A DNA stretch of 63,541 nt, filler included, from Schmidtea nova (taxonomy: Eukaryota): NCBI GenBank assembly GCA_044892505.1. It is 4 parts of one record of this genome, joined end to end, with 100 filler letters (N's around TTAATTAATTAA, not from the genome) between each part and the next. Parts side by side here need not be neighbours in the genome. Positions count along the whole stretch, not along the records: positions 1 to 20,213 come from CM097882.1; 3 more parts are not named here. One strand, 5' to 3'. Below the pieces are notes generated by a model. It was not told where the DNA came from and ran no database searches. It saw only the letters and a list, made by a program, of their open reading frames with translations. The position numbers were made by a program, and so were the translations under genes. How positions within the stretch are numbered: position 1 is the first letter of the stretch; each line of letters begins with the position of its first letter. This document shows, piece by piece, positions 6,357 to 6,372 of this stretch.

Positions 6357-6372
6357 GGTCCTAAAGAGGACC
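6357..6372 (-). promoter_or_regulatory. Histone-type stem-loop 2 (GGUCCU-CUUU-AGGACC) downstream of pPolB
   Basis: Perfect 6-bp stem with 4-nt pyrimidine loop on the pPolB sense strand; 3' flank not canonical. Confidence 0.6.

Follow-up and report, generated by a model that had tools for sequence, protein, structure and literature searches.

A histone-like hairpin behind the DNA polymerase gene of a Schmidtea nova Polinton and its probable tandem duplicate

Histone messages are described as the only known non-polyadenylated cellular mRNAs that end in the histone stem-loop (PMC4604434), an element collected in Rfam as Histone3 (RF00032). The metazoan form consists of a 6-bp stem with a U-A closing pair and a 4-nt pyrimidine loop and is found on the sense strand 3′ of the stop codon, at a median distance of 30 nt and mostly before a purine-rich element. 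Its G-C pair 2 and the U at loop position 3 have been called diagnostic of histone hairpins, and SLBP and the processing factors were not found in large DNA viruses, according to the same account (bioRxiv 10.64898/2026.10.14.759114). Earlier work cited in PMC10388802 defines a minimal SLBP site by two adenines 5′ and one adenine 3′ of the hairpin, and background on maternal histone messages is given in PMC12803260. In C. elegans, the histone 3′ end has a C at loop position 1, is associated with CDL-1, and is arranged as a hairpin followed by an AATCC box and a poly(A) signal (PMC1924863). The locus described here combines hairpins resembling both forms with a polymerase gene of the Polinton/Maverick type.

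The window, i.e., the whole stretch of 63,541 nucleotides of Schmidtea nova DNA that was analyzed, carries on its minus strand an ORF of 1391 aa (6757..10932), which Pfam and homologues identify as a Polinton family-B DNA polymerase with an endonuclease VII-like domain. Pfam alone recognizes only the endonuclease VII domain in this ORF; of 7999 candidates scored against the C-terminal half, 3312 are homologues, with identities of up to 63%, and PF03175 is found on many of the best 120 of these 3312. The rest of the core is located on the same strand (13239..18576) and comprises, based on Pfam, a piece of an adenovirus-type protease (Peptidase_C5, E 8e-6), a putative double-jelly-roll capsid gene (DJR-like, E 0.005, a weak match), a piece of an integrase, and an A32-type ATPase (E 5e-7). 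Because the integrase piece, the A32-type ATPase, the protease piece and the weak jelly-roll match adjoin the polymerase, the element that carries the hairpins is, judged by its gene content, a Polinton: it has both the protein-primed family-B polymerase with a retroviral-type integrase and the ATPase, protease and capsid set, the capsid by a weak match. As in other Polintons/Mavericks, the polymerase, integrase, ATPase, protease and putative capsid genes form a block of ~14 kb, in which the integrase of this copy is in pieces. A check for terminal inverted repeats returned only simple-repeat pairs among the longest 25 of 880 repeat pairs, and the ends of the element are likely N-masked or simple repeats.

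The Polinton also carries an ORF of 155 aa with a TBP domain (PF00352, E 1e-13; 18665-19132, plus strand), head to head with the ATPase gene. A very AT-rich region upstream of the polymerase gene (11267-11912) contains imperfect tandem repeats of ~230–290 nt, and local duplications are common in this copy. An AATAAA is present within 61 nt of the stop of both the TBP-like gene and the ORF ending at 19952, and another overlaps the stop of the ORF ending at 12805. None of these three other gene ends examined is followed by a histone-like hairpin.

Behind the polymerase stop, two hairpins are encoded on the sense strand. Hairpin 1 (6573..6588, minus strand), which reads GGCCCTCTTCAGGGCC, is preceded by the stop at a distance of 168 nt; its arms GGCCCU and AGGGCC enclose the loop CUUC, and its flanks are CAAUC and ACAAU. 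Hairpin 2 (6357..6372, read from 6372 to 6357 on the minus strand as GGTCCTCTTTAGGACC) lies exactly 216 nt further downstream, 384 nt from the stop, and forms a perfect 6-bp stem of GGUCCU and AGGACC around the 4-nt loop CUUU, flanked by UUAAU and UUAUU. Rereading the sequence agrees with the preliminary description in the position, spacing and strand of hairpin 2, and a direct comparison bears out its statement that pair 3 changes from C-G to U-A on both arms with the 6-bp/4-nt geometry and the CUUY loop kept. The two hairpins are identical at 13 of 16 positions, the three differences being both arms of pair 3 and loop position 4 (C to U).

The GG...CC form is found in only three of the 73 perfect 6-bp/4-nt hairpins of the window, namely hairpin 1, hairpin 2 and a hairpin at 60995-61010; against these three, block shuffling of the whole window (200 times) yielded 0.01 on average. 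Dinucleotide shuffling of 6229-6756 produced one histone-type hairpin in 1 of 20,000 trials and two hairpins in none of them, chance figures that are generous since the pattern was chosen post hoc from a histone consensus. The earlier expectation, voiced before any count, that two such 16-mers are improbable by chance is upheld by these shuffles; a GG...CC 6/4 hairpin of any kind appeared in 57 of 20,000. When the 531-nt 3′ region is folded, both stems are present with pair probabilities of 0.79–1.0, and the isolated 16-mers have energies of −7.7 kcal/mol (hairpin 2) and −9.9 kcal/mol (hairpin 1). A longer “lower stem” around the hairpins is unproven, as shuffled flanks fold equally well in 814, 756 and 153 of 2000 cases. 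The 756 cases refer to the imperfect stem extension of hairpin 2, whose perfect repeat ends at 6 bp.

With the Histone3 gathering cut-off of 34 bits, an Rfam scan gave no match, as hairpin 1, hairpin 2 and the hairpin at 60995-61010 all score lower. At lower stringency, hairpin 1 reaches 29.6 bits (E 1.8e-6) and the hairpin at 60995-61010, which belongs to a sister Polinton copy described below, 27.1 bits (E 1.6e-5); hairpin 2 reaches 12.5 bits (E 4.5). For hairpin 1 and the sister hairpin, the match includes the loop and the flanks and is confined to the sense strand of the polymerase. The 6-bp stem and 4-nt loop of RF00032 are present in both hairpins, and both keep the G-C pair 2 and the U at loop position 3. 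Histone pre-mRNA is cleaved after a CA. The 3′ flank of hairpin 1, ACAAU, starts with an A and contains a CA, and UUAUU behind hairpin 2 does neither; this latter flank, which also has no 3′ ACA, had already been called non-canonical, and the sequence confirms this. Adenines are found 5′ of hairpin 2 at −2 and −3, as in C. elegans, and 5′ of hairpin 1 at −3 and −4, with none at −1 in either case. By eye, no clear purine-rich downstream element was seen behind the hairpins.

Hairpin 1 and the C. elegans 16-mer differ by one loop base and share the 3′ flank ACAA, and the CUUU loop of hairpin 2 equals the C. elegans loop. Moreover, the hairpins are followed by a poly(A)-signal hexamer and a U/GU-rich tract. 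In contrast to C. elegans, there is no AATCC box, the 5′ flank is a different one, and the arrangement is tandem. The likeness to the metazoan RF00032 element extends from the stem, the pyrimidine loop, pair 2 and loop U3 to the U-A closing pair and the sense-strand position 3′ of a stop codon, but the gene is a viral-type DNA polymerase gene instead of a histone gene, the distances to the stop are 168 and 384 nt versus about 30 nt, the scores fall below the Rfam cut-off, hairpin 2 is without 3′ ACA, and a clear purine-rich element is missing. Because the score and position tests fail, the hairpins are not filed as members of RF00032. The histone-like reading of the preliminary description has support for hairpin 1 and the sister hairpin, i.e., for the parent type; hairpin 2 has an E of 4.5 and is missing the 3′ A and CA. 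The same description also takes pair 3 to covary among histone hairpins. C-G stands at this pair in the Rfam consensus and in all the C. elegans H2A, H2B and H3 genes examined; U-A at pair 3 is present in Drosophila histone genes.

The second Polinton copy (60900-63541, minus strand) runs off the end of the window, and its polymerase is broken by stops and frameshifts. Its polymerase is 71–75% identical to that of the first copy and differs at 85 of 156 four-fold sites (71/156 or 45% identical). At 136 nt behind its stop, it carries a single hairpin (60995..61010, minus strand), which shares its 5′ flank with hairpin 1 and its 3′ module with hairpin 2. This hairpin equals hairpin 1 at 16 of 16 positions and, including the 5′ flank, at 31 of 32 nt, an identity with a chance of about 5e-10 at the silent rate. 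The conserved core (6553..6604, minus strand) consists of the 16-nt 5′ flank, identical to the sister at 15 of 16 positions, hairpin 1, and ~20 nt of 3′ flank. Despite a divergence of 55% at silent sites, the two copies agree at all 11 of 11 third positions within this block, and the differences seen change amino acids; as judged from this comparison, the hairpin 1 block is under strong constraint at the nucleotide level.

Both 6314-6500 and 6549-6722 align to the single sister unit 60950-61135 (70%; E 3e-13 and 3e-14, respectively). The 3′ flank of the sister hairpin aligns to that of hairpin 2 with a score of 73, compared to a maximum of 48 in 300 shuffles, and to that of hairpin 1 with a score of 31, equalled by 27 of 300 shuffles; the 3′ similarity to the sister ends ~20 nt behind hairpin 1 and continues for ~70 nt behind hairpin 2. 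Compared with each other, the two units of the first copy show 53% identity over 206 columns, with local scores not above those of shuffles. The 5′ flank of hairpin 2 is identical at only 9–10 of 16 positions, and the changes cluster in the bases adjoining the stem. The polymerases of both copies stop at equivalent places in the same frame. A hairpin 216 nt upstream of the sister hairpin would fall into an N-run (61180-61308); since this run precedes the sister stop and keeps the polymerase frame, it is most likely the coding tail of the polymerase. Because the sister has one hairpin, which joins the 5′ side of hairpin 1 to the 3′ flank of hairpin 2, hairpin 2 is very probably a duplicate of the single hairpin of this Polinton family. 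The simplest reading would be a tandem duplication of ~216 nt in this lineage with its break ~20 nt behind the hairpin, the second unit comprising hairpin 2 and the A-rich 200-nt spacer between the hairpins (6373..6572, minus strand).

The 3′ module behind hairpin 2 (6277..6356, minus strand), defined by its alignment to the sister, contains the conserved flank, an ATTAAA (6323-6318) as candidate poly(A) signal, and the U/GU-rich tract. The distance from the hairpin to the ATTAAA is 33 nt for hairpin 2 and 35 nt in the sister. Hexamers at which the message could end before reaching the hairpin are also present in both copies: two further ATTAAA (6665 and 6652) precede hairpin 1, and an AATAAA (61138) precedes the sister hairpin. 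A 13-nt unit is repeated three times between the polymerase stop and hairpin 1 (6630-6670, minus strand), with ATTAAA inside two of the repeats.

Other copies were surveyed in contigs of four runs from one study that were aligned to the region, with the proviso that depth does not equal copy number. The summed depth peaks over the conserved core 6553..6604, and over hairpin 1 it is similar to or somewhat lower than at the coding end of the polymerase, a stretch with many silent-type variants at 30–50%. The spacer between the hairpins is covered in all four runs at 0.1–0.3% of the summed hairpin 1 depth, and the tandem two-hairpin form is clearly a minority among the copies. To the left of hairpin 1, three runs (X1, X3 and X4) have loose contig ends that look, by eye, like the 3′ module of hairpin 2, as expected of single-hairpin copies. 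Between the two hairpin regions there are four joints of low depth, which may represent diverged tandem copies or one hairpin aligned twice. A presence test of the hairpin pair in related copies, proposed along with the initial finding, mostly fails: the sister has one hairpin, and the spacer is found at the low depth given above. At position 6359, the hairpin 1 base makes up 72–78% of the summed depth and the T of the window is kept in 22–28%, in four of four runs. Since 22–28% of the depth at 6359 is without the hairpin 1 base, the U-A form is probably common to a subfamily and not an assembly error. The variant tables are incomplete (the row of 6359 is missing from one), and absent rows in hairpin 1 are not taken as invariance.

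In a neutral simulation with 15–37% change per site, 0.1–1.5% of the 200,000 trials run for each setting ended with all stem pairs of the Watson-Crick type and one or more of them changed on both arms; given exactly two stem changes, the chance of an intact paired stem is 3–5%. The paired change favors a period of selection on pairing, and represents one event in one lineage that was noticed because it is intact. Template switching can homogenize the arms of short inverted repeats without selection, as described for arms of at least 7 bp in PMC8604942. At hairpin 2 there is no positive sign of this process: the stem is perfect over 6 bp only, and folds that extend it do no better than those of shuffled flanks.

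We regard it as evenly balanced whether hairpin 2 is, in full, a diverged ~216-nt tandem duplicate of the family's single hairpin with a parent that likely served as a histone-type, SLBP-bound mRNA end signal. For the parent hairpin taken separately, a role as histone-type end signal of the polymerase gene appears marginally more probable than its opposite. In such a scenario, host SLBP would bind the polymerase message at hairpin 1, and the message would either end just behind this hairpin or continue to the conserved ATTAAA and be polyadenylated. As with histone messages, the supply of polymerase would then be tied to S phase or to storage in oocytes. Once duplicated, the signal would have retained its whole core in the upstream unit, and the downstream unit would have lost the bases adjoining the stem; the pairing of hairpin 2 would have persisted under temporary selection or been repaired by template switching. 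Today, hairpin 2 would bind SLBP weakly at best and be cleaved poorly, and a weak or decaying copy is more likely than an equal partner.

That both hairpins work, with hairpin 2 selected as a second SLBP site or as a fail-safe 3′ end near the poly(A) signal, seems unlikely. An intact stem with a double change is rare under neutrality (P 0.001–0.015, or 0.03–0.05 given two stem changes), but a single covarying pair in one lineage is one event. Hairpin 2 retains pair 2, loop U3, the C. elegans loop and the 5′ adenines at −2 and −3; it has nevertheless lost the 3′ ACA and dropped from 29.6 to 12.5 bits in the Rfam score. The T at 6359, kept in 22–28% of the depth in all four runs, indicates a variant that is probably subfamily-wide, yet the sister copy manages with one hairpin and the spacer accounts for a small minority of the depth. 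Alternative 3′ ends at the two hairpins are possible; for cooperative SLBP loading over 200 nt, which had been suggested together with them, the analysis found no support. A chance palindrome unrelated to hairpin 1 would fit the low flank identity between the two units, but is close to refuted by the 13/16 identity, by the 1 in 20,000 shuffles, and by the alignment of its unit to that of the sister at E 3e-13.

Two further explanations concern the nature of the parent hairpin. It could be another kind of subterminal element, such as a DNA cruciform, a single-strand hairpin in replication or excision, or a transcription stop, with the paired change introduced by template switching. In both Polinton copies the distance from a hairpin to repeat-rich or masked DNA, possibly the element end, is ~110–130 nt, the polymerase has an endonuclease VII-like domain, and the changes beside the stem of hairpin 2, together with the arm homogenization described in PMC8604942, would suit a template switch. 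A terminal-repeat signal would, however, need a hairpin at the other end of the element as well, where a 6/4 hairpin scan of the window found none; the Histone3 match is strand-specific and takes in loop and flanks, and the repeat of hairpin 2 is not perfect beyond 6 bp, with an extension that shuffled flanks equal as often as stated above. We consider a subterminal element of this kind improbable. It is very unlikely that the conserved block encodes a short basic peptide, which would make the hairpin incidental and hairpin 2 a dead copy. In both copies, one frame stays open through the hairpin and closes 18 nt further on, and the common variants 6560 and 6557 near hairpin 1 fall on third positions of this frame and are silent; on the other hand, the identity of all 11 third positions at 55% silent divergence and the amino acid changes caused by the observed differences are not those of a coding sequence, both polymerases stop upstream at equivalent places, and A-rich DNA readily gives open frames.

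To our minds, the preferred reading, a duplicate of a probably histone-like parent, has to be set against the absence of the hairpin from related polymerase loci elsewhere, a difference from the other Polintons/Mavericks surveyed. Three collection scans with an alignment of 55 polymerases gave the best 80 of at least 439, 13 and 34 loci, which together with two further loci make 129; 76 of them reach the polymerase C-terminus, with a flank of at least 250 nt in 63 and at least 500 nt in 55. Among the matches listed, none of the 76 polymerase loci has a histone-like hairpin within 1200 nt of sense-strand flank, including none of the eight closest loci listed (44–60% identity, >200 nt of flank). 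As 0 of 76 related loci carry the hairpin, the signal is, in the sequences surveyed, not general in this polymerase group. An initial metagenome scan with a single-protein query gave no match. Literature searches for histone-type hairpins in Polintons, Mavericks, transposons or viruses, and for the exact 16-mers, brought up no report, as judged from listings whose coverage leaves out most subscription journals, and the word “hairpin” is absent from the accessible part of a paper on nematode Polinton polymerases (10.1101/2023.08.22.554363).

One other locus, L016, stands outside the count of 76. It harbors a canonical histone stem-loop (4137-4152, minus strand; Histone3 28.9 bits, E 3.7e-6), located 604 nt behind the last ORF of an intron-bearing Polinton-type polymerase gene (minus strand, 32% identity). 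A second polymerase gene converges on this hairpin from the other side, with tandem repeats in between. L016 may be an independent case of a histone-type signal behind a Polinton polymerase and is a single lead. Exact scans of viral contigs found hairpin 1 in 14 loci, hairpin 2 in three and the L016 hairpin in four; because none of these 21 loci encodes a relative of the polymerase, the matches are read as chance. A scan for the 5′ flank with half of the hairpin gave no locus.

The window contains several other features between the two Polinton copies. An ATF7IP-type fibronectin-III domain (PF16794, E 5e-13; 22199-22522, plus strand) is 92% identical to a 209-aa protein and is probably a host exon. 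In a retrotransposon ORF of 2428 aa (33919-41205, minus strand), the protease, reverse transcriptase, RNase H and integrase are preceded by a Monjiviricetes-type fusion glycoprotein domain (E 5e-90); an ORF of 678 aa without Pfam match follows (31768-33804). A hAT transposase ORF is found at 47583-49232. A self-complementary repeat of ~250 nt occurs three times (43980-44260, 52766-53055 and 54243-54491) and resembles a miniature inverted-repeat element.

Hairpin 2 on its own is a duplicate at the level of a subfamily, and most of the weight rests on the parent signal. As a natural experiment, it offers a paired change that favors the folded structure and lost flanks that predict weaker binding. 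That an animal Polinton family borrowed the histone end signal of its host for its polymerase is about as likely as not; that, in addition, one subfamily doubled it, with both hairpins working and providing alternative 3′ ends, is unlikely. If true, this reading would have its first support from covariation in the change of pair 3 from C-G to U-A, and a DNA element whose polymerase depends on a histone signal would represent a novel means by which a genome parasite could couple its replication to S phase or to the germ line.
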